Origin: Candidatus Kaiserbacteria bacterium
Lineage (GTDB): Bacteria; Patescibacteriota; Minisyncoccia; Phycocordibacterales; UBA918
Direction of reading: 5' to 3'
NCBI GenBank assembly: GCA_031430855.1
Contig: JANPCG010000013.1
Coordinates: 99,781-163,780 of the forward strand
DNA: 64,000 nt
Within the stretch, counting starts at the first letter, position 1, and each line of letters starts with the position of its first letter. The position numbers were made by a program, and so were the translations under genes. The notes under the pieces were generated by a model, which did not search any database, had not been told where the DNA came from, and saw nothing but the letters and a program-made list of their open reading frames with translations. This document shows positions 5,274 through 60,432 of the stretch, piece by piece.

Positions 5274-5876
5274 TTGATTTCGGTTATGTCACGAGAACTT
5301 ACAACTTCACGCTTATTATTAGATATTCGAAAGATGTATTTCTTGGAAATGATTCCGAAGAATGGATATAAGACTGGTAGATTTGCATGGTATCAAAACA
5401 ATACTGAATTAGGGTACATAAATTATCAGTCTTCTGTTGGAAGGACATATGCTGGTCTTCAACTGATTTATCAAATTACATACCAAGGGGGTGAGGTTAA
5501 AAACATCAATCAGGAAGTGTTGCTGACGGGTATTGATTGTCATTTTGGGGGTTTCCGTTGGTACTTCAAATGCCCAGGATGTAATGCACGAGTAGCAGTG
5601 CTTTATAGCGGTCAAAATGGCTTCTACTGTAGAAAATGTAACCATCTAGCATACGAAGGTCAAAATGATTCAAAACTGAACAGAGAGGGCATTTTTCGCT
5701 TATGGTCCATTACAGATAAAGAAGAAAAGATGATTGCACGGATAGGGCGTACTTTATACAAAGGTAAGCCTACTAGGAAGTATAAACAGCTTTTGGATAT
5801 ACAAAAAAAGAATGGATTGATAGTGAGAGAAGAAGTACAAAAAGAGTATAATAAAACCAATAATGAAAAATTTTAG
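5274..5876 (+). CDS. hypothetical zinc-ribbon protein (CPGC...CRKC)
   Basis: four Cys in CxxC...CxxC arrangement; overlaps the recombinase start by 14 nt (operon-like). Confidence 0.45.
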   Translation: MISVMSRELTTSRLLLDIRKMYFLEMIPKNGYKTGRFAWYQNNTELGYINYQSSVGRTYAGLQLIYQITYQGGEVKNINQEVLLTGIDCHFGGFRWYFKCPGCNARVAVLYSGQNGFYCRKCNHLAYEGQNDSKLNREGIFRLWSITDKEEKMIARIGRTLYKGKPTRKYKQLLDIQKKNGLIVREEVQKEYNKTNNEKF

Positions 5877-7629
5877 CGACAACAAATACTTCATCTATAT
5901 TCGGAGGTCGCAAGATGCTGAGGACCGTCAAATGGCGAGTCTGGAAGACCAGGAAGCTGAAATGCGAACTGTGGCCGAAAGGTACAATTTAAATGTGGTT
6001 GATGTGATTGGTGAGTCACGGTCCGCCAAACACCCAGGTAGACCTAAGTTTAATGAAATGCTTGCACGCTTGCATGCTGGTGAAGCTAATGGGGTGTTGT
6101 GTTGGAAATTGAATCGACTGTCTCGCAATCCAATAGATGGTGGCCAGATTTCATGGTTGTTACAACAAAAAGTAATTTCTCATATCAGGACCATTGAAAG
6201 AGATTATTTACCAACTGATAACGTCATTATGATGGCGGTTGAACTTGGTATGGCTAATCAGTTTTCAAATGATTTAAGTGTTGATGTTAAGAGAGGTATG
6301 CGACAAAAGGCTGGGCGTGGCTGGAATTCACAAAGCACACTACCTGTTGGTTATAGGCATAACACTGGTTATGAAAAAGACGGTGAAGAGATAGTTTCTA
6401 CTTCTGACCTTCAAATTGTTAAAAAAGTTTTAGGTACTTTTTTAGAAGGTGCACATTCGGTGTCGGATATTCAGCGACTAGGTACTGTCCTTGGGCTTGT
6501 AAACAAGAGGGGTAAACCACATGTCTATAACACGTATCTGAATATGTTGAGATGTCATATGTACTATGGTTACTTCCAGTGGCGAGACAGTGACGGTGTT
6601 GAACAGTGGCATAAGGGAAAACACGAACCAATTATTACTGAAGAACAATTTAATCAAGTTCAGTTAATGCTTGGTAAGCGTGGAAGACCAACAAGAATTA
6701 ATACATACGACTTTGCGTTTCGTGGCCCGCTGTCTTGCGGTGAGTGTGGTTGTGCTGTTACTGCTGAAAGAAAACTACAGTGTATTTGTACTGGGTGTAA
6801 AAGAAAATTTTCGTGCAAAACTGCTAAGGCTTGCCCAGATTGTGCTTTGCAAATAGGTGATATGAAAAAGCCAAGTTTCGTTGATAAAACTTACTATCGT
6901 TGCACTAAGAGAAAGAAGGGATACAAATGTTCTCAAAAATGCATTGAAGAAAGTAAGCTTCATACTGACATTGACGGCATATTGCAAGATATGGAAATAG
7001 ATAAGGACTTCTATCAATGGGCTAAAATGGCCTTACGTGACGTTCATAGTAGTGAAATTGATGAACAGCGTGAAATCGTAAAAAGAACAGCCAAGAAAAG
7101 AGATGAGCTTTTTCAGCGATTGAATAACTTGGTCCTGATGCGTGCTGACGGTGAGATTTCGTCTGACCAACTTAAAGACATGAAAGGTAAAGCGGAAAGG
7201 GAATTACATGAAGTCGAAAAAGAGTATCGAGCACTGGACCAGCGAGCTTTGCACTGGGTAGATATTGCTGATGGCTACCTGACGTTTACTGAGAAAGCTT
7301 GTGACCTATTTAACACAACTACTAATTTGAGTCTCAAGCGTGAGATACTTCAAACCCTTGGTTCGAACCTAGAAATTTTTAATCAAAAGCCAATGTTCGT
7401 AATGGCTAAACCGCTTATTGCATTGAAAAATGTTCATGTGCGTACCTACAAAGAATTAGGTACGTTCGAACCTAAAAAAGCCCTTGATAAACAAGGACTT
7501 TCTAAGGAAAAAGCTATTGCTTTTTCAGTTCTGTGCGCCGGGAGGGATTCGAACCTTCGTAGGCTGATGCCAGCAGATTTACAGTCTGCCCTCGTTGACC
7601 GCTTGAGTACCGACGCAAATATAGTGTAG
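5863..7629 (+). CDS. large serine recombinase (resolvase/invertase catalytic domain + recombinase domain + Cys4 zinc ribbon)
   Basis: N-terminal YIRRSQDAEDRQMASLEDQ (catalytic Ser + Q...L..Q) and LNRLSRN motifs; CGECGC...C..C zinc ribbon; 588 aa, typical of large serine recombinases. Confidence 0.8.
   Translation: MKNFSDNKYFIYIRRSQDAEDRQMASLEDQEAEMRTVAERYNLNVVDVIGESRSAKHPGRPKFNEMLARLHAGEANGVLCWKLNRLSRNPIDGGQISWLLQQKVISHIRTIERDYLPTDNVIMMAVELGMANQFSNDLSVDVKRGMRQKAGRGWNSQSTLPVGYRHNTGYEKDGEEIVSTSDLQIVKKVLGTFLEGAHSVSDIQRLGTVLGLVNKRGKPHVYNTYLNMLRCHMYYGYFQWRDSDGVEQWHKGKHEPIITEEQFNQVQLMLGKRGRPTRINTYDFAFRGPLSCGECGCAVTAERKLQCICTGCKRKFSCKTAKACPDCALQIGDMKKPSFVDKTYYRCTKRKKGYKCSQKCIEESKLHTDIDGILQDMEIDKDFYQWAKMALRDVHSSEIDEQREIVKRTAKKRDELFQRLNNLVLMRADGEISSDQLKDMKGKAERELHEVEKEYRALDQRALHWVDIADGYLTFTEKACDLFNTTTNLSLKREILQTLGSNLEIFNQKPMFVMAKPLIALKNVHVRTYKELGTFEPKKALDKQGLSKEKAIAFSVLCAGRDSNLRRLMPADLQSALVDRLSTDANIV
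7534..7616 (-). tRNA. tRNA-Tyr (anticodon GTA) with long variable arm, no encoded CCA
   Basis: manual fold: acceptor GCGTCGG/CCGGCGC, anticodon loop CTGTAAA, variable stem GGC/GCC, T-loop GGTTCGAATCC; lies inside the 3' end of the recombinase ORF on the opposite strand. Confidence 0.8.
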
Positions 7630-36543: not shown

Positions 36544-38049
36544 TTGATAAATTATGGTATGAATGAAAATAAGGATAAGGATTTTATAGATGACAAGATT
36601 ACTTCAAGAGCTGCTGATTTTTCTCAATGGTACCTAGATGTGATTAAAGCTGCTGATTTGGCTGAAAATTCACCCGTGAGAGGTTGTATGGTTATAAAAC
36701 CATACGGATATGCTATTTGGGAAAATATACAAAAGATTTTGGATAAAGAATTTAAAGATAAGGGAACAGAAAATGCCTACTTTCCTTTATTAATACCAAA
36801 AAGTTTTTTAGAAAAGGAAGCAGTACACGTTAATGGTTTCGCAAAAGAGTGTGCGGTTGTTACACACCATAGACTAGAAGAAAAGGATGGTAAATTAATT
36901 CCAGCAGGTGAATTGGAAGAGCCTTTAATAATTCGTCCTACATCTGAGACAATTATTTACGATGCTTTTTCAAGGTGGATAAATTCATATCGCGACTTAC
37001 CTCTACTAATAAATCAATGGTCAAACGTTTTTAGATGGGAAATGAGAACACGACCTTTTTTACGCACATCCGAATTTTTATGGCAAGAAGGGCATACTGC
37101 ACACTCCTCGAAAGAGGAGGCTGATAAAAAAACTCTAGAAATGTTAGAGGTATATCGAATGCTTGCAGAGGATTATCTTGCTATTTCGCTCGTCTTAGGA
37201 AGAAAAACTGAAAGTGAGAAGTTTGCGGGCGCAGACTACACCACCACGATTGAGGCAATGATGCAAGATGGTAAAGCTCTTCAGTCAGGGACGTCTCACA
37301 TGCTTGGTCAAAATTTCTCAAAATCATTTGATGTGTCATATTTGGATGAGAATCAAAAAAAACAATATGTTTGGCAAACAAGCTGGGGTCTATCCACAAG
37401 AATTATCGGTGCGATCATCATGTCTCACTCTGATGATAAGGGACTAGTTCTGCCTCCTAAAATCGCTCCATTTCAAGTGATAATTATTCCAATTTACGCC
37501 ACTGAAGAAGATCGAATAGCTGTTATGGAAAAGGTTTCCGTCATTAAAGACGATTTAAATTCAGCGGGAATTTCATTCAAGCTTGATGATAGAGTTGGTC
37601 GTCCTGGCTTTAAATATTTTGAATGGGAAAGAAAAGGTGTTCCATTAAGATTTGAGATTGGACCAAAAGACGTAGAAAAGGGTTCAGTTGTTGTTGTGGA
37701 AAGATTACATGGTACAAAAGAATTTGTTCGGGATAAAGACATTGTTTCATTTGCCCATTCAAGTTTGAAAGAAATGCAAGACTCGCTTTTTGCAAATTCA
37801 AAAAAGTTCAAGGTTGAAAACACTAGGGAAGTCGCAGATTACGAAGAATTTAAGAAGACGATAAGTAATAAAATTGGTTTTGTCTTTGCATATCTTTGTC
37901 TAGATAAAAACTGTGAAGAGAAAATTAAAGAGGAGACCAAGGCATCTAGTAGGTGTATTCCTTTTGAGGGAGGGGTTGGTAATTCTGGTAAATGTATCTA
38001 CTGCGGCAAAGATACTCCTTATAAAGTGCTGTTTGGGAAGGCTTACTAG
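36544..38049 (+). CDS. proS: prolyl-tRNA synthetase, archaeal/eukaryotic type (class IIa, C-terminal Zn-binding domain)
   Basis: colinear similarity to archaeal-type ProRS (FSQWY, YFPLLIPKSFLEKEA.HV.GF, RPTSETIIY, FRWEMRTRPFLRTSEF, CIYCGK); ORF starts TTG 36544, first ATG 36559. Confidence 0.85.
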   Translation: MINYGMNENKDKDFIDDKITSRAADFSQWYLDVIKAADLAENSPVRGCMVIKPYGYAIWENIQKILDKEFKDKGTENAYFPLLIPKSFLEKEAVHVNGFAKECAVVTHHRLEEKDGKLIPAGELEEPLIIRPTSETIIYDAFSRWINSYRDLPLLINQWSNVFRWEMRTRPFLRTSEFLWQEGHTAHSSKEEADKKTLEMLEVYRMLAEDYLAISLVLGRKTESEKFAGADYTTTIEAMMQDGKALQSGTSHMLGQNFSKSFDVSYLDENQKKQYVWQTSWGLSTRIIGAIIMSHSDDKGLVLPPKIAPFQVIIIPIYATEEDRIAVMEKVSVIKDDLNSAGISFKLDDRVGRPGFKYFEWERKGVPLRFEIGPKDVEKGSVVVVERLHGTKEFVRDKDIVSFAHSSLKEMQDSLFANSKKFKVENTREVADYEEFKKTISNKIGFVFAYLCLDKNCEEKIKEETKASSRCIPFEGGVGNSGKCIYCGKDTPYKVLFGKAY

Positions 38050-51934: not shown

Positions 51935-52513
51935 CTACTCTGCTGTGAATAAGTAGCGATTACAGTTGTTGTTCTTGTAGCTCGGTGGGTAGTCTTCTTC
52001 GTCAAAGGCTGCTCCTAAAATTCGTTCAGTTCCACTCCATCCGATTGTTGGGTATATAGGTTCAATGTAAGATCTTACTGTATGTAATGTGTAGCTACTA
52101 AGTACTTCGTTTAATTTATTTAGGTGGGGGTTGGCTATAGCAAATGCGATAAGTTCAGATAGAGTTAATGGGCGATATCCGATTCTCGTCATGTTAGCCA
52201 ACATCTTATTACGACCATCGAGATTAGTTGCTCCGATGTTTAGTATGTAAACCCAAAAAGATGAAGATGTCGGAGCTGTCCAAGGAATTTCCCTCAGTAC
52301 CCCCTCTGTGAAGCTTGCCGAACCCTGGTCTGCATCTTTAAATAAATTTACTGCTGATTCATATGTCTCTAGTAAATTTAGGTTTTTATCATTTATTTTA
52401 ATATTAACTACCCCTCCATCTATTGAAACATCTAGTCTGATTGGAATATCCGCATTTTCGCATTTTTTAATAAAATCAATAATTTGCGGTAGTTTGGTGT
52501 TAATTTTTTGCAT
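51935..52513 (-). CDS. hypothetical protein
   Basis: ORF only. Confidence 0.4.
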   Translation of the reverse strand: MQKINTKLPQIIDFIKKCENADIPIRLDVSIDGGVVNIKINDKNLNLLETYESAVNLFKDADQGSASFTEGVLREIPWTAPTSSSFWVYILNIGATNLDGRNKMLANMTRIGYRPLTLSELIAFAIANPHLNKLNEVLSSYTLHTVRSYIEPIYPTIGWSGTERILGAAFDEEDYPPSYKNNNCNRYLFTAE

Positions 52514-53034
52514 ACATTTTTGATGGTTTAAATGGTGTCACAATCATAAGATGAAATTAGATATCCAAACCCCAACTTGGTTAAATTATGTGTTACGAAG
52601 AGATATAAAGCAATCTAAGTAATGTAACCATCTAGACTTTCTTTAAGTCAACTTGCAAATAGAGGCATAACTTGCCAGTATTTAAGTGTGCTTCAAAAGG
52701 TTGTATACAAAGAATCTTAGGTTGGGTTAGTAATTAGTGTGATGCTAATTAGTTGCCTTAGAAAAAGCTAAGACAAGGTTTGGTTTATTTGCATCAACGT
52801 GTGGGACTGATATTTTGTACCACAGGCTTTGTCTAAGAGAGCTGTAGGTAAAGCCTGTGGTACGTAGTGCCGCAAATGTTCATCGATGCGTATTGCAATT
52901 TGTGGTTCCAAAGCGAAATAGTTTTTTATGCTGATAAAAATAATGAAAAACTAGATGTAGCTGCAACTGATATACTGCTACCTACGTACGGTAAATATAG
53001 TGAATACAACGTTAGAAATTAATTATATAAACAA

Positions 53035-53446
53035 ATGACTAAACAGCTGCAATTACGCTGGATGTTTAATAGTGAAAAATATGACTTTGTAACAGAGTTA
53101 CAAAAGGCAACAAAACGCCAGTTCTTAGGTACGGCTGATATGCAAAAAGCTTTATTGTGTACTGAAGAAGATGTTTTTTTTGTATGCAAAAGAGCATCAA
53201 ATGGTAAAGAAATTAATTGGTACGTATAATCCTAAATTTCATGAAGAAACAACTGATGGAGATTATATCTTGCATGAAAATGATGTTTATAATTTATATA
53301 CAAAAGAGCGCGGAAACAAAACCTTTATCATGGGTTTTCATTCAGAGGAAGCGGCTAAGAAGTGGGTGTTGTCAAATGATGACCATTCTGATGAAGCGCT
53401 ACGTAACTATATCAGAAGCCAATTTAATTTTTACATCAAAAAGTAA
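53035..53446 (+). pseudogene. small gene split by a frameshift at a T8 homopolymer (ORFs 53035..53229 and 53171..53446)
   Basis: two overlapping ORFs in adjacent frames joined at GATGTTTTTTTTGTATGC; either a true pseudogene, a phase-variable tract or a sequencing error. Confidence 0.3.
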
Positions 53447-53693
53447 ACCTGAAAGAAATCCTAGGGTATCCATAGGAACTCACGAGTCTATTTTTATTGA
53501 TACAGAAACGTTTGTAGCAATCCAAATATCTTTATGATCATGGTGAGTCTGTCGTCAAATTCTTGCAGACCTAGAATGGCCAACTTCCTTAGGTCGCTGC
53601 CTTTACTTTCTCGCTATTTTTAGTAGTCTGGGCAATAGATTGGCGGTGTATACCGCTGAATGTATAACAGTCACATATCAAACGGAGAACGTG

Positions 53694-54665
53694 ATGAGTA
53701 AAAAACAGCTCCCACCACCTCCGGGATTTCGGAGGCAAAAGAAGACGTTTGGCGCGGGAACGATACGCTATGTGTACCCATTTTCCGATACCGAACCGGG
53801 GAAAGAGGCCTCTTCAATCCACGAAGCCTATCTGAGTGAATATCAAGAGATGTGGCAGCGTTCGAAGCTGCGGCGCCTCGCCATCAAGCGCGGTAAAGAA
53901 GCGCTCGGTGAAGAAGGGCTATATCTTGTGACGCTGCCTGAAATGGATAAGGAGGCTTTGCGTCAGGTGTACGCTAAGCGTCAGCACGAGGCGTTTCAGA
54001 TTGGCATCAATCTGCTGAGTTATGACTATCCAATCTTCATGCGCCGTAACCCGCTTGATCTCGTGTTTGAACACCTGCGGAACAACCCACGATACTACCT
54101 TAAGCTCGATCTGAAGGGTGCATTTGAGTCAGTCTATCCAGGCTTCCATCCGCGGTTTCCAGTGGTAACCAAGGAGGAGGGTGGGGAAGAAAGTGTGTGG
54201 ACCGGATGGCCCTTTTTCCATCCGGGAACACATGGCTTGATTCAAGGAGCGCCGGCGTCGCCGTTAATCTTTGAGCAAGCCTGTAAGGCGGTTGGTCTTG
54301 ATCAGCTCATTCGTGAGTCTGCCCTGGCCGCCGGGGCGACGGTGACTCGGTACGTTGACGATATTGTCTTCTCACGGCGTGAGCCGTTTGGAGACAGGTT
54401 CTGCCAGACTCTTCGCAGTCGGATCGAGGGTTTAGGATTCGTCTTGAATGTAGAGAAAAGCCGGCAGTTCGATACGCGATGGCACGCCATCGAGTTTCTC
54501 GGGGTGCGACTCTTTCGGAATCGCATTACGCTACGACCGTCTTTCTTTGATCGTCTCAAGGAAAAAGGTATCGTTACGGATGGACACCTGTCATGGATTG
54601 ATCAGGTTAACCAGCTGAAGGGTATGTTGGACCTACGGCGCAAAAAAGTCTGGCGCTACCAGTAA
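53694..54665 (+). CDS. reverse transcriptase, small (about 323 aa) retron/Abi/DRT-like, no maturase or endonuclease domain
   Basis: RT motifs: QGAPASPLIFE (QGxxxSP, motif 4), RYVDDIVFS (YxDD, motif 5), LNVEKSRQF...FLGVRL (motifs 6-7); GGAGAA SD before ATG 53694. Confidence 0.8.
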   Translation: MSKKQLPPPPGFRRQKKTFGAGTIRYVYPFSDTEPGKEASSIHEAYLSEYQEMWQRSKLRRLAIKRGKEALGEEGLYLVTLPEMDKEALRQVYAKRQHEAFQIGINLLSYDYPIFMRRNPLDLVFEHLRNNPRYYLKLDLKGAFESVYPGFHPRFPVVTKEEGGEESVWTGWPFFHPGTHGLIQGAPASPLIFEQACKAVGLDQLIRESALAAGATVTRYVDDIVFSRREPFGDRFCQTLRSRIEGLGFVLNVEKSRQFDTRWHAIEFLGVRLFRNRITLRPSFFDRLKEKGIVTDGHLSWIDQVNQLKGMLDLRRKKVWRYQ

Positions 54666-55081
54666 CGGTTTGACCATTTGAACCGTTACTGGTAGTGTTC
54701 CGGCAGGGAGGTTCGGGACGGGATCTTTTACTGCAAACTACCATTTTGGCTGTAAGCGAAGCTTACAGTTGCCCCAATGACCGAAGGGGTGCGTATGTTT
54801 GGTCGGAGACGTCGGTTTGATTGGGATATATCAGACGACTGCCTCGCTCACCTTCCTGGCCCATGCTTGGGTAACGCTGGAAAGTGAATAACGACGCCTC
54901 GTCACGGACGCTCACTCCGTTCCGTCCGAGGCAGATCCCGCGCTTGGTTCCATTTCGGGGTTCCCGATGCTCTGAACCGAGACGATGGGCTGCTGCTACC
55001 TGTCCCACGAAGAACCTCCCCGCAGTCCGCTGTTCCTTTGAAGAAATTTGCGCCCCTACCTAGTACGGGGGGCATTTTTTT
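54666..55081 (+). ncRNA. candidate structured RT-associated RNA / 3' UTR (multiple stable hairpins, ends in terminator)
   Basis: 12-bp perfect stem CCAGTAACGGTT...AACCGTTACTGG spanning the RT stop, 8-bp hairpin CTGTAAGC-gaa-GCTTACAG, nested GCCTCG/CGGACG stems near 54890-54935, terminator at the 3' end; no convincing protein ORF. Confidence 0.3.
55049..55081 (+). terminator. rho-independent terminator GCGCCCC-tacctagtac-GGGGGGC + T7
   Basis: read from sequence. Confidence 0.6.
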
Positions 55082-55116
55082 ATATAAAAAAGCTCTCATT
55101 AAAAATTTAAACAAAC

Positions 55117-55189
55117 TAATAAAAAACCAGAGCCGTGAGGCTCTGGGTAATCTTTATGGGTGTTATTCAGACCAGCTTCAGGGCAGATA
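55117..55189. repeat. 73-bp direct repeat copy 1 (contains gene 3' end + terminator CCAGAGCC-gtga-GGCTCTGG)
   Basis: identical to 55914..55986. Confidence 0.85.
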
Positions 55190-55606
55190 GATTTTCTCCG
55201 AATGCTGCCGGAGTGCGCGGAACACCGCTTGGTTCAAGTCTGGCCTGATGTAGCCATAGAAACCGGTGAGGGTCTGCATGTGCTCTGGCAGCCCCTTGGC
55301 ATCTCCAGTCACCATCAGCGCCAAGACATCCGTGCCAAATTCGGAAGTGCGTCTTGGGTGTTTGTCCAAGAACATACGCGCATGCGCAAGTTCATGGGCA
55401 ATCACGTGGATGAGCCGATAGCGGGGGGTCTGGATGACGGCTGTTTTGCTCTCCACAAACAACAAGGTGCCGCTCAGGGGGTGGTTGTTTCTGGTAAAGT
55501 CCATCTCCATTGCTGCTACCGCCGCGGGAGACAACCCCTTGGCGTTATATCTGACGCGGGTGCAAAAGTTTGAGGGAAGCGCGAACGTTTCCATCAGGCT
55601 ACACAC
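55178..55606 (-). CDS. small zinc metallopeptidase (HExxH; ImmA/IrrE- or SprT-like)
   Basis: HVIAHELAHARMF HExxH motif; 142 aa; its last codons and terminator lie in repeat copy 1. Confidence 0.55.
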   Translation of the reverse strand: MCSLMETFALPSNFCTRVRYNAKGLSPAAVAAMEMDFTRNNHPLSGTLLFVESKTAVIQTPRYRLIHVIAHELAHARMFLDKHPRRTSEFGTDVLALMVTGDAKGLPEHMQTLTGFYGYIRPDLNQAVFRALRQHSEKIYLP

Positions 55607-55618
55607 TGCACTCGCCAG

Positions 55619-55765
55619 ATCACCGTCGTCCAGCTGTTTTATTTAAGTAGCTGTAGGCGGTCAGAAAAGAACGGCGGAGGTGGGCATATGAAACGCACAC
55701 CTCGCGCACAATGGTTTCAACATCAGCTCTCTTGATGATGAATTTGTCGTCGACAGTATACGCCA
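55619..55765 (-). CDS. 49 aa hypothetical protein upstream of the metallopeptidase (MAYTVDDKFIIKRADVETIVREV...)
   Basis: not in ORF track (shorter than 60 aa); AGGAGG 7 nt upstream of ATG; co-oriented and 12 nt from the peptidase start. Confidence 0.35.
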
Positions 55766-55913
55766 TTTGTCTTCCTCCTATTTTTTAAAATAATATCATA
55801 TTATTCATAAATGTCAAGCATTAATAGCACGATTAGTGCGTGTTCTAAGAATCATTCTTCCTAAAATATTTAAAGGTGTCGGCTAAGGTAGGGGGGAGAA
55901 ATCGGTAAACTTA

Positions 55914-55986
55914 AATAAAAAACCAGAGCCGTGAGGCTCTGGGTAATCTTTATGGGTGTTATTCAGACCAGCTTCAGGGCAGATAG
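55914..55986. repeat. 73-bp direct repeat copy 2 (htpX 3' end + terminator)
   Basis: identical to 55117..55189. Confidence 0.85.
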
Positions 55987-57036
55987 TGAGCGTCTGCCCA
56001 GGTCTTTGACTTGGCGCAAGCGTAGCGCCAGACGTCGGTCGACCATTCGTGGGTGAGACATCAGCCACTCTGAAGTGCGGCGATATAGCTTCCGCTTTTC
56101 TTCAGTGTTGTAGATATTTTTGAAGAACTTATCGAGGGCCGACGAGAGGTCGTCTGCATACTCGGGGCCGGCGAGGTCAATCGCCACCGCGTCCGCCCGG
56201 TACTCGGTCGCCCGAGAGTAAGCGTGTGAAGCAAGAACCGAGAGTATGGTTCCCACAAGCGAGGTGGTGAACGCGAACACAATCGGCGCCGTGATGTCGA
56301 TTGATAGCTGGAGTCCGTAGAGGAGTAGTCCAGCCACGACACCAGCGATGATGGCGTCTTCGGTGCGTGACAAGAAGGCGTAGCAGATGATTGTCATGAG
56401 GACGAAGTTCCCGACAAACCACGGGAACAAATGGAAGAACGTTAGGACCAGTGCGACCAGCATCACCATAAACTGCACCACCGCCAAGAGACGCAGTCCA
56501 CCGAGCACGAGGTGTTTGATGAGACTTGTCTGTGTATCCATCAAAGCCACGTGACCCACCTCATGAGCCAGGACGGCACGAATTTCATCACGCGTGAATC
56601 GTTCGTATCCGCCCTGCCAGTAGATTTTGCTTCCAGAGAGGAAACTTGTCGACGTGGCGGCACGTGGTCGGTTGCCTGGCTCATAGATTAAGAGTGGTGT
56701 TGGAATGCCCGCCTTTTGGGCGAGTTCTGCGAGCATCTGTTCCATGAACGCAGGCGGATCTACCTTGTGGCCACGAAGATTTTGGTAGTGGCCGACCTCG
56801 AAGGCAATCAAGGTCCCGATTGCCGTGAACAGGTAGATTTCAATCCAGCTGTCAACGGTGAAGCGCAAAACCGTGCTGGAAACGTGAGCCCAGTGATTTT
56901 CGATCCACAGTTGGGCCAGGTGTGGTGTTGCGACCGCAATTGAAATGCTGAGCAGAAACCAGCACGATGCTTGGATGCGCCAGCGACGGTCGGTCGCCAC
57001 ATCGTGGTGAGGCAGATTTTTTCGACGAACAAACAT
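55963..57036 (-). CDS. htpX: M48-family membrane zinc metalloprotease (HtpX-like)
   Basis: VLAHEVGHVALMD HExxH in a polytopic membrane protein; start set at MFVRRKN with GGGAGGGA SD (ORF track extends to 57240). Confidence 0.7.
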   Translation of the reverse strand: MFVRRKNLPHHDVATDRRWRIQASCWFLLSISIAVATPHLAQLWIENHWAHVSSTVLRFTVDSWIEIYLFTAIGTLIAFEVGHYQNLRGHKVDPPAFMEQMLAELAQKAGIPTPLLIYEPGNRPRAATSTSFLSGSKIYWQGGYERFTRDEIRAVLAHEVGHVALMDTQTSLIKHLVLGGLRLLAVVQFMVMLVALVLTFFHLFPWFVGNFVLMTIICYAFLSRTEDAIIAGVVAGLLLYGLQLSIDITAPIVFAFTTSLVGTILSVLASHAYSRATEYRADAVAIDLAGPEYADDLSSALDKFFKNIYNTEEKRKLYRRTSEWLMSHPRMVDRRLALRLRQVKDLGRRSLSALKLV

Positions 57037-57187
57037 GATTCCCTCCCGAGGGTTGATTTTTCTGTGTAGTGTAATACCACAAAATGTATAACTTGTCGAA
57101 CTTCCGGAAGACCAAACTTTGGAAAAAGTGACAAAGAAAAAGGCTGTGCGGGTATGACCGCACAGCCAAGTTGATACCCATTCTACG

Positions 57188-57421
57188 TTAGAGTGGGCTG
57201 ATGTCGCGATAAATGTGCTCGCAGCTCGCGCAGTAGCCATCGCTGCAGTTACAGCGCCTGGCCTTGGCCAACATGCGCCGTAGGCTCACTTCCGTGATCT
57301 CGACATTTTCGGGGTGAGCGACCTGACCCCCGGTCAAGAGTTTGCGCGCAAACTCTTTGATTTTTTGTCCCAGTGGAATACTGGTCTGCGGGGCGGTTTT
57401 TGTGCTCGAAAGGACAGTCAT
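57188..57421 (-). CDS. small hypothetical Cys-rich protein
   Basis: ORF only (CNCSDGYCASCEH). Confidence 0.25.
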   Translation of the reverse strand: MTVLSSTKTAPQTSIPLGQKIKEFARKLLTGGQVAHPENVEITEVSLRRMLAKARRCNCSDGYCASCEHIYRDISPL

Positions 57422-57577
57422 GTATCTTCTTCTCCGTTAAAGGAGCGATGATAATACGTGTCTGTGCATACCGTGTCAATTCTTTGTTCTGTATAAGTTG
57501 ATTATTGAGTGCACTGCGTCAAAAAAGTGGGTAAGAGTCGTTACGGTGTGTCGTCTTATGAGCATAAACTAAAAAAT

Positions 57578-57874
57578 ATGAAATACATTTTGACCATTAC
57601 TGCTGCATTTATTGTTCTCCTCGTTTTGTTTTTGGCATTCGCTTCGGAACGCACGCAGACGCAAACGGATGTCTCTTCGCCGATTGAACCTACGCCGGCT
57701 CCTATGACAGGGAAGTTAGATCCAAAAGTGGTGTGTGAAAGTGCGCTCATGTACACGACATTTACTGATGGTGCGGCAGCTGATGCCTTTGTGGCAGACT
57801 GTGTCGCTGGGAAACATCCTGAAGTGTTTGAGAGATATATATCTGACCTGAATCTTAATGGTGCAACGATATAG
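57578..57874 (+). CDS. small secreted or membrane-anchored hypothetical protein
   Basis: start set at MKYILTITAAFIVLLVLFLAFA (signal/anchor). Confidence 0.4.
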   Translation: MKYILTITAAFIVLLVLFLAFASERTQTQTDVSSPIEPTPAPMTGKLDPKVVCESALMYTTFTDGAAADAFVADCVAGKHPEVFERYISDLNLNGATI

Positions 57875-58026
57875 AATCTACTCACTTTGAGGGGTGTAGC
57901 TTTCTTGTGCTAATTGCTCGACAGATATTTTTTATGTTGTAGTATTCACCACGGATGTAACACGGATTACAACTCCCGACCTCGGGAAGAGGGAAATCCT
58001 CAGCTATCAGCTGGAAAGGAAGACAT

Positions 58027-58557
58027 ATGCGATATGCAGATACTACGTTTGGGAGTGCCGAGGCGGTCATGAACAAACTCGGCGGGCCAGAAGGGATTGA
58101 GCGGTTCCTAGCAGGGGACTCCGAAATCGTGATTCGTCGTCACGTCATCAATACCACCCTTCCACCACATTATGATGATGAGTCCTTTGCCGTGGCCAGA
58201 CACACGCCGCTTAGGCTAAACAAAGGACGGTTGCACTGGGATTTGACGCAGATCGGTGTCCTGCAGGTTGACCGCTCGGCGGTTGAAAACGGTATGAGTA
58301 TCGAAGACTATCTGAGGGAGGTCTCTGATGAATCTTTCCTGAATGCTCGCGTACGGGATTATCTCATGAAGTACCCCAGTCTCATCCCGGAAGCGTGGCA
58401 GGTTCATACGCTCTGCTTCGCGGGGACGATTTTTCGGGGTCGTCGCGGGAGGTATCTGCCCACGCTCCAGTTCTCCGTCGGCGAATGGTACGATATATAC
58501 GAGCCTATGGCCGAGAAGCTGAAAGCAGAAATGGTGGTAGTTGCAGCGCACAAGTAA
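58027..58557 (+). CDS. hypothetical protein
   Basis: ORF; terminator follows. Confidence 0.45.
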   Translation: MRYADTTFGSAEAVMNKLGGPEGIERFLAGDSEIVIRRHVINTTLPPHYDDESFAVARHTPLRLNKGRLHWDLTQIGVLQVDRSAVENGMSIEDYLREVSDESFLNARVRDYLMKYPSLIPEAWQVHTLCFAGTIFRGRRGRYLPTLQFSVGEWYDIYEPMAEKLKAEMVVVAAHK

Positions 58558-58563
58558 GAAGAA

Positions 58564-58591
58564 GGCGGCCGTCATCGTACGGCCGCTTTTG
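58564..58591 (+). terminator. rho-independent terminator GGCGGCCGT-catcgt-ACGGCCGC + TTTTG
   Basis: read from sequence. Confidence 0.65.
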
Positions 58592-58664
58592 CATTGAGGG
58601 GAGGGGCTTGCATTTAGATAGTGTATATTATACAATAACTAAATTACACCTAACCAACAATCCT

Positions 58665-59384
58665 ATGACACCTACAATTTCACGTCGGCAGCAATTATTG
58701 GGAACTCATGCACAGCACATTGAAAGCCTCCGGGTGGCAATGTTCATGCTGGCAGTTACTATATTTTATGAAATAGTTTCAGCTGAGCTCATTCCTGGAT
58801 TTCAGTTTAATTGGTTTGAGTTTATTGGGACCTGGAGTGGTCTCGTGACGGTGTGGCTCGCACGCACCGAAAACATCCTCAGTTGGCCGTGGGGAATTGT
58901 GAGTGCGGCAACGCTTGGCTACTTTTTTGCCTCAATTGGACTTGTGGGTCAGCAGTGGCTGAATTGGGGATACTTTCTCATTATTCAATTGTGGGCCTGG
59001 CCGCACTGGGCCTTTGGCGGGGTGGCAAAAGCACCACTTTCGGTCACGCTATTCCGTTCAGTTTGGGGCTGGGTCAGTACGATTGGCGTCATTGGGGTAG
59101 GTGCAGTCTTTGTCTATAGTTTGATTTCATTTATTTCACCGGCTTCTGAATATCCCGTGATTGACGCCATTGTGGTCGCGTCGAGTATCACCGCTCAGTT
59201 CCTCTTAGGACGGAAGAAGCTTGAGAGTTGGTTCTTGTGGCTGGGGCCAGTGAATGTGCTCTCGATTATTCTGTTTGCCCTCGCCGGCGCATACGTGGTG
59301 ATGGCACTCTATATCGCCTTCTTTATTCACGCCATTTTTGCGCTTCGCAGTTGGCACGCACAAACAGTCGGTACTCACTCATAA
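58665..59384 (+). CDS. pnuC: nicotinamide riboside transporter PnuC
   Basis: Trp-rich PnuC-like TM pattern (WSGLVTVWLAR...SWPWGIVS...QQWLNWGYFLIIQLWAWPHW); start set at MTPTISRR; adjacent to nadR. Confidence 0.75.
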   Translation: MTPTISRRQQLLGTHAQHIESLRVAMFMLAVTIFYEIVSAELIPGFQFNWFEFIGTWSGLVTVWLARTENILSWPWGIVSAATLGYFFASIGLVGQQWLNWGYFLIIQLWAWPHWAFGGVAKAPLSVTLFRSVWGWVSTIGVIGVGAVFVYSLISFISPASEYPVIDAIVVASSITAQFLLGRKKLESWFLWLGPVNVLSIILFALAGAYVVMALYIAFFIHAIFALRSWHAQTVGTHS

Positions 59385-59395
59385 TTACTACATAT

Positions 59396-60352
59396 ATGTT
59401 TACTCACTGTCTCATTATTGGAAAGTTCTACCCACCACACCGCGGACATAAGTATTTAATAGATACGGCTATCGAACGGAGTCGAGAAGTAACCGTAATA
59501 GTCTGCTACAAAGCAGGACAAGAAATCTCGGGCGTGCTACGTGCGCAGTGGATACAGCGGATTCATCCAACCGTTCACGTGAAGTTGCTCGATGATAATC
59601 GCTTGCGTGATGATGATTCAGCTGGTTGGGCCGAGTCGACAGTGAGTGTCCTGGGATTTGTGCCGGACGCGGTCTTTACCTCAGAAGCGTATGGCGATAC
59701 CTATGCATCATTCATGGGGTGCGTGCATGTGCTGGTTGATAAGGAGCGTACCCATATTCCGATTAGTGCCACGATGGTACGGAGTGACCCAGTAAAGTAC
59801 GCAGAATTTTTAGAACCGTGTGTGCGGGCGTACTTTGCGAAACGGATTGCGATTGTAGGAGCCGAATCTACCGGAACTACAACGCTTGCTCGGGCCTTGG
59901 CTGAACACTTTCATACTACTTGGGTCCCTGAATATGGTCGATTTGTGTCCGAAGGGAAAGTGTATGGGGATGAGCATGCTGCGTGGCGAAGTGAGGAGTT
60001 TGAAGCGATTGCTCGAACGCAAGGAGTGTTTGAAGATTTGCTGGCAGAATCATCAAACGGACTCGTTGTGTGCGACACCAATCCGTTTGCAACCGGTATC
60101 TGGCATGAACGGTACATGGGGACGCGTTCCAAAGCGGTCGAGAAGATTGCGGCTGAGCGTTCGTATGCTCTCACTGTCGTCACGGGAGATGAGATACCGT
60201 TTGTGCAAGATGGGCTACGTGATGGCGAACACCTCCGGCACCAGATGCATCAGCAGTTTATTGATCGATTGATTGAAACCAAGCAACCATTCATTGTGGT
60301 AACAGGGAGTGTAAAGGCTCGGGTGTCTCAGGTATTATCGGCACTCGCATAA
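59396..60352 (+). CDS. nadR: NadR-type NMN adenylyltransferase + ribosylnicotinamide kinase
   Basis: IIGKFYPPHRGHKYLI (HxGH nucleotidyltransferase motif) and C-terminal P-loop VGAESTGTTTLARALA. Confidence 0.8.
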   Translation: MFTHCLIIGKFYPPHRGHKYLIDTAIERSREVTVIVCYKAGQEISGVLRAQWIQRIHPTVHVKLLDDNRLRDDDSAGWAESTVSVLGFVPDAVFTSEAYGDTYASFMGCVHVLVDKERTHIPISATMVRSDPVKYAEFLEPCVRAYFAKRIAIVGAESTGTTTLARALAEHFHTTWVPEYGRFVSEGKVYGDEHAAWRSEEFEAIARTQGVFEDLLAESSNGLVVCDTNPFATGIWHERYMGTRSKAVEKIAAERSYALTVVTGDEIPFVQDGLRDGEHLRHQMHQQFIDRLIETKQPFIVVTGSVKARVSQVLSALA

Positions 60353-60432
60353 ACATAGTATTAATTAGTCTATGGACATTATTAAAAAATCTTGTATAAT
60401 CACAAGCTGAACCAGTCAATCGGAGAACTGAG

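Follow-up and report, generated by a model that had tools for sequence, protein, structure and literature searches.

A small reverse transcriptase and a conserved, pseudoknotted RNA encoded downstream of it in CPR bacteria

Introduction

A 64,000-nt stretch of a Candidatus Kaiserbacteria genome (contig JANPCG010000013.1, positions 99,781 to 163,780; hereafter the window) encodes a small reverse transcriptase (RT) that is followed by several hundred nucleotides of structured, apparently gene-free sequence. The locus raises the question of whether this downstream stretch is an RNA partner of the enzyme, and whether the pair belongs to the retrons or to the defence-associated reverse transcriptases (DRTs), to which a first-pass annotation of the sequence had likened it. 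Retrons, DRT2, DRT9, and DRT10 each revealed an unexpected route of making DNA and became genome-engineering tools. We found that the RT and its non-coding RNA (ncRNA) form a real and conserved module of bacteria of the candidate phyla radiation (CPR), which resembles retrons and DRT systems and is a member of no described family. We found no description of this RT-ncRNA family in the searchable literature.

A conserved RNA gene follows the reverse transcriptase

The module comprises two genes:

53694-54665, + strand: RT gene, an open reading frame (ORF) of 323 aa with an RVT_1 domain
54705-55081, + strand: structured ncRNA gene of about 377 nt, recognised by homology and covariation

All 12 loci of the RT family have a gene-free stretch of 395 to 570 nt after the RT gene, despite differing neighbours (two come with caveats: in L016 a gene call that overlaps the next gene lies inside the stretch, and the contig of L017 ends early). 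The ncRNA itself measures 350 to 440 nt across the family. Nucleotide homology between the window and L010 is unbroken from 53601 to 55089, that between the window and L001 runs from 53684 to 55023, and in both cases it then ends. Among these three sequences the ncRNA is 66% to 74% identical, compared with 47% to 53% at the third codon positions of the RT gene, which indicates purifying selection on the ncRNA. RT and RNA occur together throughout, in changing genomic contexts, and the downstream stretch is a conserved ncRNA gene rather than leftover spacer.

The RNA has no conserved or DRT2-like open frame: its longest stop-free frames are at the level of shuffled sequences and inconsistent in strand and frame. 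Public gene calls exist inside it, one of 57 aa at 54902-55075 of the window (L006 6257-6430) and one of 192 aa at L016 1339-1917. Both are probably spurious, because no frame is conserved and the one in L016 overlaps with the gene that follows. Screening of 52500-56000 against Rfam gave no match even at E <= 10; likewise, the ncRNA of 14 related loci matches no Rfam family, be it RNase P, tmRNA, an RT-associated motif, or an intron, and ARAGORN found no tmRNA.

A long-range helix and a pseudoknot organise the RNA

The 446 nt from position 54640 fold at -183.8 kcal/mol, compared with -148.1 +/- 6.5 kcal/mol for shuffled sequences (z = -5.5; none of 100 shuffles was as low), whereas the 254 nt upstream of the RT gene fold like ordinary sequence (z = -0.97). 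The structured region of about 415 nt that the first-pass annotation had placed 3' of the RT is thus borne out, both by its stability and by its conservation in homologous loci. RNAalifold on the window, L001, and L010, which form one subgroup, yields helices P1 and P1', six hairpin domains, and the terminator, and a second long-range helix (strands X and X') emerged from a comparison of the 3' ends across all subgroups:

54706-54722, + strand: 5' strands of helices P1 and P1' (GGGAGGUUC, then GGGACGGG), which pair with 55012-55020 and 54999-55006, respectively
54999-55020, + strand: 3' strands of P1' and P1 (CCUGUCCC ... GAACCUCCC)
54747-54771, 54779-54804, 54805-54844, 54848-54887, 54896-54936, and 54945-54979, + strand: six hairpin domains
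54987-54993, + strand: pseudoknot strand X (GGGCUGC), which pairs with X' at 55022-55028
55022-55028, + strand: pseudoknot strand X' (GCAGUCC), which pairs with X

The closing helix P1 joins 54706-54714 to 55012-55020 and continues as P1', in which 54715-54722 pair with 54999-55006. P1 and X/X' cross and therefore form a pseudoknot. Its geometry recurs in the 10 loci in which it was measured: X' always begins exactly 1 nt after the 3' strand of P1 (P1b), and X precedes P1b by 15 to 26 nt in nine loci and by 2 nt in L018.

Both helices are maintained by compensatory change. X/X' is fully paired in nine lineages, with six of its seven pairs changed on both sides, and seven of the nine P1 pairs are changed on both sides across lineages. 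Taken together in anchored blocks from the nine lineages, 98.6% of the cells of P1 and X/X' are paired, compared with 39% to 57% when the partners are slid by 1 to 3 columns, and 13 of 16 pairs are changed on both sides, compared with 7.2 +/- 1.5 in shuffled blocks (none of 500 shuffles reached 13). Within the window's subgroup, the full structure is paired in 94.6% of cells (32% to 48% when slid) and has 18 pairs changed on both sides, compared with 7.7 +/- 2.0 in shuffles, none of 500 of which reached 18, and 1 to 3 when slid. Eleven of the pairs changed on both sides lie in the six hairpin domains, which are not alignable between subgroups. P1, the pseudoknot, and the full fold therefore all covary above shuffled controls. 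Invariant G-U pairs place the RNA on the + strand.

The loop between X and P1b (54994-55011 in the window) carries short direct repeats: CCUAC-N4-CCUAC in L001, CUACCUAC in L014, GUCU-A-GUCU in L011, and CUGCUGCUACCUG in the window; L013 is a further locus with such repeats. These repeats, seen by eye, recall the A-B-A' templates of DRT10, although they are not significant, because repeats of 4 to 5 nt within about 20 nt are expected by chance.

Predicted transcription signals between the two genes

Three signals lie between the end of the RT gene and the end of the RNA:

54652-54699, + strand: hairpin across the RT stop codon (TAA, 54663-54665), lacking a U-run and conserved in L001 and L010
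54670-54698, + strand: sigma-70-like promoter of the ncRNA, predicted from sequence
55048-55081, + strand: intrinsic terminator of the ncRNA, a GC-rich hairpin (55048-55074) followed by U7 (55075-55081)

A canonical hairpin with a T-run closes the RT gene in nine of the 12 loci. In the window, L001, and L010 the hairpin lacks the T-run, and in the window it occupies the place that the intrinsic terminator has in other subgroups. A perfect 12-bp stem had been described over the stop codon; the stem is there and its length was understated, as it has 15 Watson-Crick pairs (54656-54670 with 54681-54695) and 22 pairs when G-U pairs are included.

The promoter-like site of the window consists of a -35 element TTGACC (54670-54675), which lies within the stop-codon hairpin, a 17-nt spacer, and an extended -10 element TG-n-TAGTGT (54693-54698). 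A site of the form TTGnnn-16/17-TAnnnT is found between the RT stop codon and P1, the first RNA helix, in all 12 loci, with its -35 element inside the hairpin; an equally good site occurs in about 15% of shuffled sequences, which corresponds to a chance of about 0.15 per locus. The distance from the end of the -10 element to P1 is 6 to 7 nt in subgroups A and B, and in the window the positions of the two elements predict that the ncRNA starts at about 54705, at the foot of P1. We infer that the ncRNA has its own promoter. The idea that the RNA is co-transcribed with the RT probably does not hold in this simple form, given the terminator after the RT gene in nine of 12 loci and the promoter-like site in all 12. 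Since the stop-codon hairpin of the window's subgroup has no U-run, read-through from the RT gene is possible there, and in such transcripts P1 could alternatively be extended on its 5' side, in competition with the pseudoknot.

The terminator at the 3' end of the RNA, which had been recognised before, recurs in homologues with compensatory changes, and each of the other complete loci likewise closes the RNA with a hairpin and a T-run. A simple terminator scan does not list it because its stem is imperfect. At 55127-55146 there is also a perfect 8-bp GC-rich hairpin with a T-run on the minus strand. It is the terminator of a convergent gene of 142 aa, so that the ncRNA and this gene end tail to tail, no more than about 100 nt apart.

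A minimal RT weakly related to retron RTs

The RT starts at the ATG at 53694, as the N-terminus MSKxPLPPPPGFRR is kept in 13 homologues and a GGAG lies 8 nt upstream; the longer TTG or GTG starts proposed by gene callers are unsupported. RVT_1 is the sole Pfam domain (E = 3e-13, residues 107-273), and Pfam revealed no maturase, endonuclease, integrase, or other fused domain, in agreement with the earlier description of a small stand-alone enzyme. The motifs named in that description (motifs 4-7: QGxxxSP, YVDD, EKS...FLG) are likewise present, as QGAPASP, YVDD, NVEKS, and EFLGV, and conserved across homologues. D139, Y220, D222, and D223 are invariant among homologues, and D139, D222, and D223 are the catalytic residues. 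Motif 4 of RTs from diversity-generating retroelements (DGRs) is of the type [LIV]GxxxSQ.

An AlphaFold2 model of the RT (pLDDT 84.7) has fingers, a palm, a two-helix mini-thumb, and an inserted stretch of about 80 aa (residues ~34-111) that forms three helices. Its best fold neighbours are the retron RTs Eco7, Ec78, and Ec86, with TM scores of about 0.5. A profile search against solved structures returned as top match a chain labelled only "Retron" (E = 1e-9), followed by Ec78 and Ec83 (E = 3e-9 to 9e-9), Ec86 (2e-5), DRT2 (3e-5), and a group II intron RT (2e-4). By sequence comparison and predicted fold, the RT is therefore nearest to retron RTs, if weakly so, with DRT2 next.

The motifs given for retron RTs, NAxxH and VTG (Mestre et al. 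2020, PMC7736814), are replaced in this family: the former reads (D/Q)xVxEH, of which H127 alone is invariant, and the latter F268-L269-G270. A VTDG segment near the C-terminus had been likened to the retron VTG region. The segment exists (at about residues 294-297), yet only G297 is conserved and motif 7 reads FLG, so the likeness does not carry over to the family.

Every family model of retrons, DRTs, and group II introns scores the RT far under its cut-off, and for this retron/DRT-like candidate, as it had been called, membership in either group is not sustained. The NCBIfam model retron_St85_RT gives 34.7 bits (cut-off 235), the group II model TIGR04416 29.9 bits (cut-off 300), Drt2 20 bits (cut-off 390), and Drt3a 11.8 bits (cut-off 200). 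PADLOC returned only generic palm-domain matches of at most 44 bits; its retron RT types reach at most 40 bits and match the palm only, and no unknown-group (UG) or abortive-infection (Abi) model is among its best 25 matches.

A rare family with a smaller sister clade

The RT family is very rare. It has about 14 full-length homologues among 5.8 billion clustered proteins, and in a set of 1.84 billion representatives it falls into five clusters at 50% identity. The family profile has no members in the GTDB representative genomes, a metagenome scan for further members returned known loci only, viral contigs and phage records contain no homologue, and a plasmid collection gave only two weak partial RT matches. 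All relatives come from CPR bacteria, as does the host. The locus of the window is chromosomal, with genes for TopA, ProRS, RelA/SpoT, and ParB in the same stretch; the prolyl-tRNA synthetase (36544-38049) belongs to the type that ends in a ProRS-C_1 domain, and its nearest named relatives are from Paceibacterota and Parcubacteria.

Next in similarity come the RTs of a sister family, about 240 aa long and, wherever their source is named, from CPR phyla. They align end to end with the 323-aa family (hhalign E = 9e-45), except for the ~80-aa three-helix insertion of the latter. Six sister loci each have a terminator-ended non-coding stretch of 260 to 350 nt 3' of the RT gene, and several of the sister RNAs show, as judged by eye, the layout of P1 flanked by X/X'.

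Comparison with described RT-RNA systems

The module shares with retrons, apparently, the ancestry of its RT, the small size of that stand-alone enzyme (about 320 aa), and an adjacent, dedicated structured RNA, whose paired 5' and 3' regions (P1) might be a counterpart of the retron a1/a2 duplex. It differs in that its RNA lies 3' of the RT gene, has a predicted promoter of its own, is 350 to 440 nt long, and is pseudoknotted, whereas the retron ncRNA is upstream and co-transcribed; the departure from the canonical retron order had been pointed out from the start. It further differs in lacking NAxxH, VTG, and a conserved effector, and in being restricted to CPR bacteria.

DRT2 pairs a UG2 RT with a pseudoknotted ncRNA that serves as scaffold and template and lies upstream (PMC12039810, PMC11100668). 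Both systems consist of two components, have a pseudoknotted ncRNA, and have no protein effector, in which DRT2 is joined by DRT9 (PMC12039810, PMC9226505, 10.1101/2025.10.16.682844). In contrast to DRT2, the CPR RT falls outside UG/Abi and its ncRNA is downstream and has no conserved stop-free frame. DRT9 and DRT10 combine a UG28 or UG17 RT with an ncRNA that, as in DRT2, is a pseudoknotted scaffold and template, and make protein-primed homopolymer or tandem-repeat DNA (10.1101/2025.10.16.682844). Helices beside a short template set its boundary in these systems, and the single-stranded loop between X and P1b could do so in the CPR RNA. There is, however, no sequence membership, the CPR RNA is about three times longer and has no significant A-B-A' repeat, and DRT10 has three parts, one of them a SLATT partner. 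DRT3 (UG3, UG8, and a 3' ncRNA; PMC9226505) resembles the module in having its ncRNA downstream of an RT gene, yet it uses two RTs of the UG/Abi lineage, whereas the CPR locus has one retron-like RT. The RTs of group II introns and the group II-like (G2L) RTs share the motif 4-7 signature (QGxxxSP, YVDD, FLG). The module differs from group II introns in having neither a ribozyme domain nor an X/maturase domain, and we know of no described partner RNA of G2L RTs.

Genomic context

The module opens a block of 50% to 56% GC (53600-60400) in a genome of 33% to 42% GC. On its minus strand the block contains two genes resembling HExxH metallopeptidases (55178-55606, and an M48/HtpX-like gene at 55963-57240); genes for a PnuC-like transporter and an AAA_28 (NadR-like) protein are also part of it. 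A peptidase cassette at an island edge had been taken as a sign of defence, which the comparison does not uphold: these neighbours are absent from other loci, and none of 12 neighbours fits a defence model. The window and L001 each have a 142-aa ORF after the RNA, and the two are unrelated.

A syntenic slot holds the module in subgroups B and C and in L017. A ~400-aa protein without Pfam domains is encoded upstream, in either orientation, in L002, L011, and L012 (subgroup B) and in L017, and genes for an HD-domain protein and an MGMT-like DNA_binding_1 protein, 60% to 85% identical, lie convergently downstream in subgroups B and C (L002, L011, L012, and L013). Such DNA- or nucleotide-related neighbours are lacking in the window and in L001. 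The RTs of the slot loci are 39% to 75% identical.

Elsewhere in the window, a large serine recombinase of 588 aa (Resolvase and Recombinase domains; 5863-7629) has a tRNA-Tyr gene on the opposite strand within the end of its ORF (7533-7616), which possibly marks the boundary of an integrated element. The related CPR contig L002 has a group I intron match at 1982-2306, in a stretch with no called gene, whose score of 50.3 is right at the Rfam gathering threshold (50).

Discussion

On balance, we favour the reading that the locus is a two-gene module, in which a minimal RT has a 3', separately promoted structured ncRNA of about 380 nt as its dedicated partner. The long-range helix P1 would clamp the ends of the RNA, and the X/X' pseudoknot would wrap the 3' strand of P1. 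We infer that the RT binds this core of its partner RNA, made up of P1 and the pseudoknot, and that some portion of the RNA templates cDNA synthesis; the RNA, or the RT itself, may serve as primer, an arrangement as in retrons, DRT2, DRT9, and DRT10. A defence role is plausible and unsupported by context.

Several observations weigh against this reading or against parts of it. The P1 and pseudoknot blocks that were compared across lineages were picked and aligned by hand from about eight lineages, and the subgroups share no primary-sequence motifs beyond P1 and the terminator. In the sister family, whose RNAs share little sequence, the same layout was judged by eye, and the per-sequence searches were individually non-significant. 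No template, primer site, or branching G was identified in the RNA. As to defence, PADLOC models matched none of 12 neighbouring proteins of the window, and no partner or effector gene is common to all loci, BLAST among the neighbours having returned lineage-specific synteny only. The syntenic slot, moreover, points to vertical inheritance in those lineages rather than to a mobile defence island.

That retron RTs match the enzyme best in sequence and in fold, and that its size (323 aa) is similar, could mean that the locus is a genuine but rearranged retron, in which P1 corresponds to a1/a2, the 2'-OH of an adjacent guanosine primes, and part of the RNA is copied to multicopy single-stranded DNA (msDNA), with the effector absent or unrecognisable. 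The helix that pairs the 5' and 3' ends of the RNA does resemble a1/a2. We nevertheless regard this as unlikely, since (D/Q)xVxEH and FLG stand in place of NAxxH and VTG, the retron models score 35 to 40 bits against a cut-off of 235, no effector is conserved, and the RNA is downstream, pseudoknotted, about twice the usual length, and equipped with a predicted promoter of its own. Less likely again is an RNA that has nothing to do with reverse transcription, either a small RNA or 3' untranslated region (UTR) that regulates or stabilises expression of the RT, or an independent neighbouring RNA gene. The missing U-run at the stop-codon hairpin would let the RNA of the window's subgroup belong to the RT mRNA, and such a regulator would fit the alternative pairing that, in subgroups A and B, extends P1 at the expense of the pseudoknot. 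A covarying fold of 350 to 440 nt, however, far exceeds the needs of a terminator or stabiliser, the RNA accompanies the RT in 12 of 12 loci and in six of six sister loci, in different contexts, and neither a housekeeping RNA model nor ARAGORN, searching for tmRNA, found a match.

We consider it very improbable that the module is a mobile retroelement whose RT recognises the structured 3' RNA for its own retro-mobility, as with the 3' UTR of LINE/R2 elements or in a retroplasmid. RT and RNA do behave as one conserved unit, which in the window sits on GC-rich sequence within an AT-rich genome, but the unit is present there in single copy without flanking repeats, and the RT has no endonuclease or integrase domain. 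A terminator separates RT and RNA in most loci, the syntenic position is kept across lineages whose RTs share just 39% to 45% identity, and the phage collection has no member of the family, the plasmid collection only two weak partial RT matches. The chance that the locus is a degenerate group II intron or DGR is slighter still, this reading being refuted by the searches made. Motifs 4-7 do look group II-like; a domain V/VI was found neither in 52500-56000 (Rfam, E <= 10) nor in 14 related loci, there is no maturase, and the upstream sequence is unstructured. A DGR might be expected from the host, as DGRs make up about 80% of CPR RTs (PMC8632793). The QGAPASP of motif 4 is unlike the DGR type, there is no template repeat/variable repeat (TR/VR)-like repeat, and no part of the unit has a second copy in the 64-kb window or in 15 loci.

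Beyond the two-gene module itself, a broader and more tentative proposal, which we hold to be possible though unlikely, is that RTs of 230 to 340 aa with the signature FFHxxGGLIQGAPxSP and their 3' pseudoknotted RNAs constitute a hitherto unrecognised, CPR-wide, partly vertically inherited class of RT ribonucleoproteins outside retrons and UG/Abi. Its telomerase- or DRT10-like core would make defined, possibly repetitive DNA for defence or genome maintenance, and the core-enclosing helix with the pseudoknot, arranged around a helix-bounded single-stranded loop, would be the template/pseudoknot domain.

The RT, at 323 aa (about 240 aa in the sister clade), is among the smallest known and comes with a well-defined pseudoknotted RNA partner. 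Because the module is compact (~1.5 kb) and has no conserved partner protein, its product and function are directly testable by heterologous expression. Its hosts are CPR bacteria, in which DGRs had been regarded as the prevailing type of RT and recognisable defence systems are few. That the module is syntenic and apparently inherited vertically in some of their lineages may mean that its role is something other than defence.

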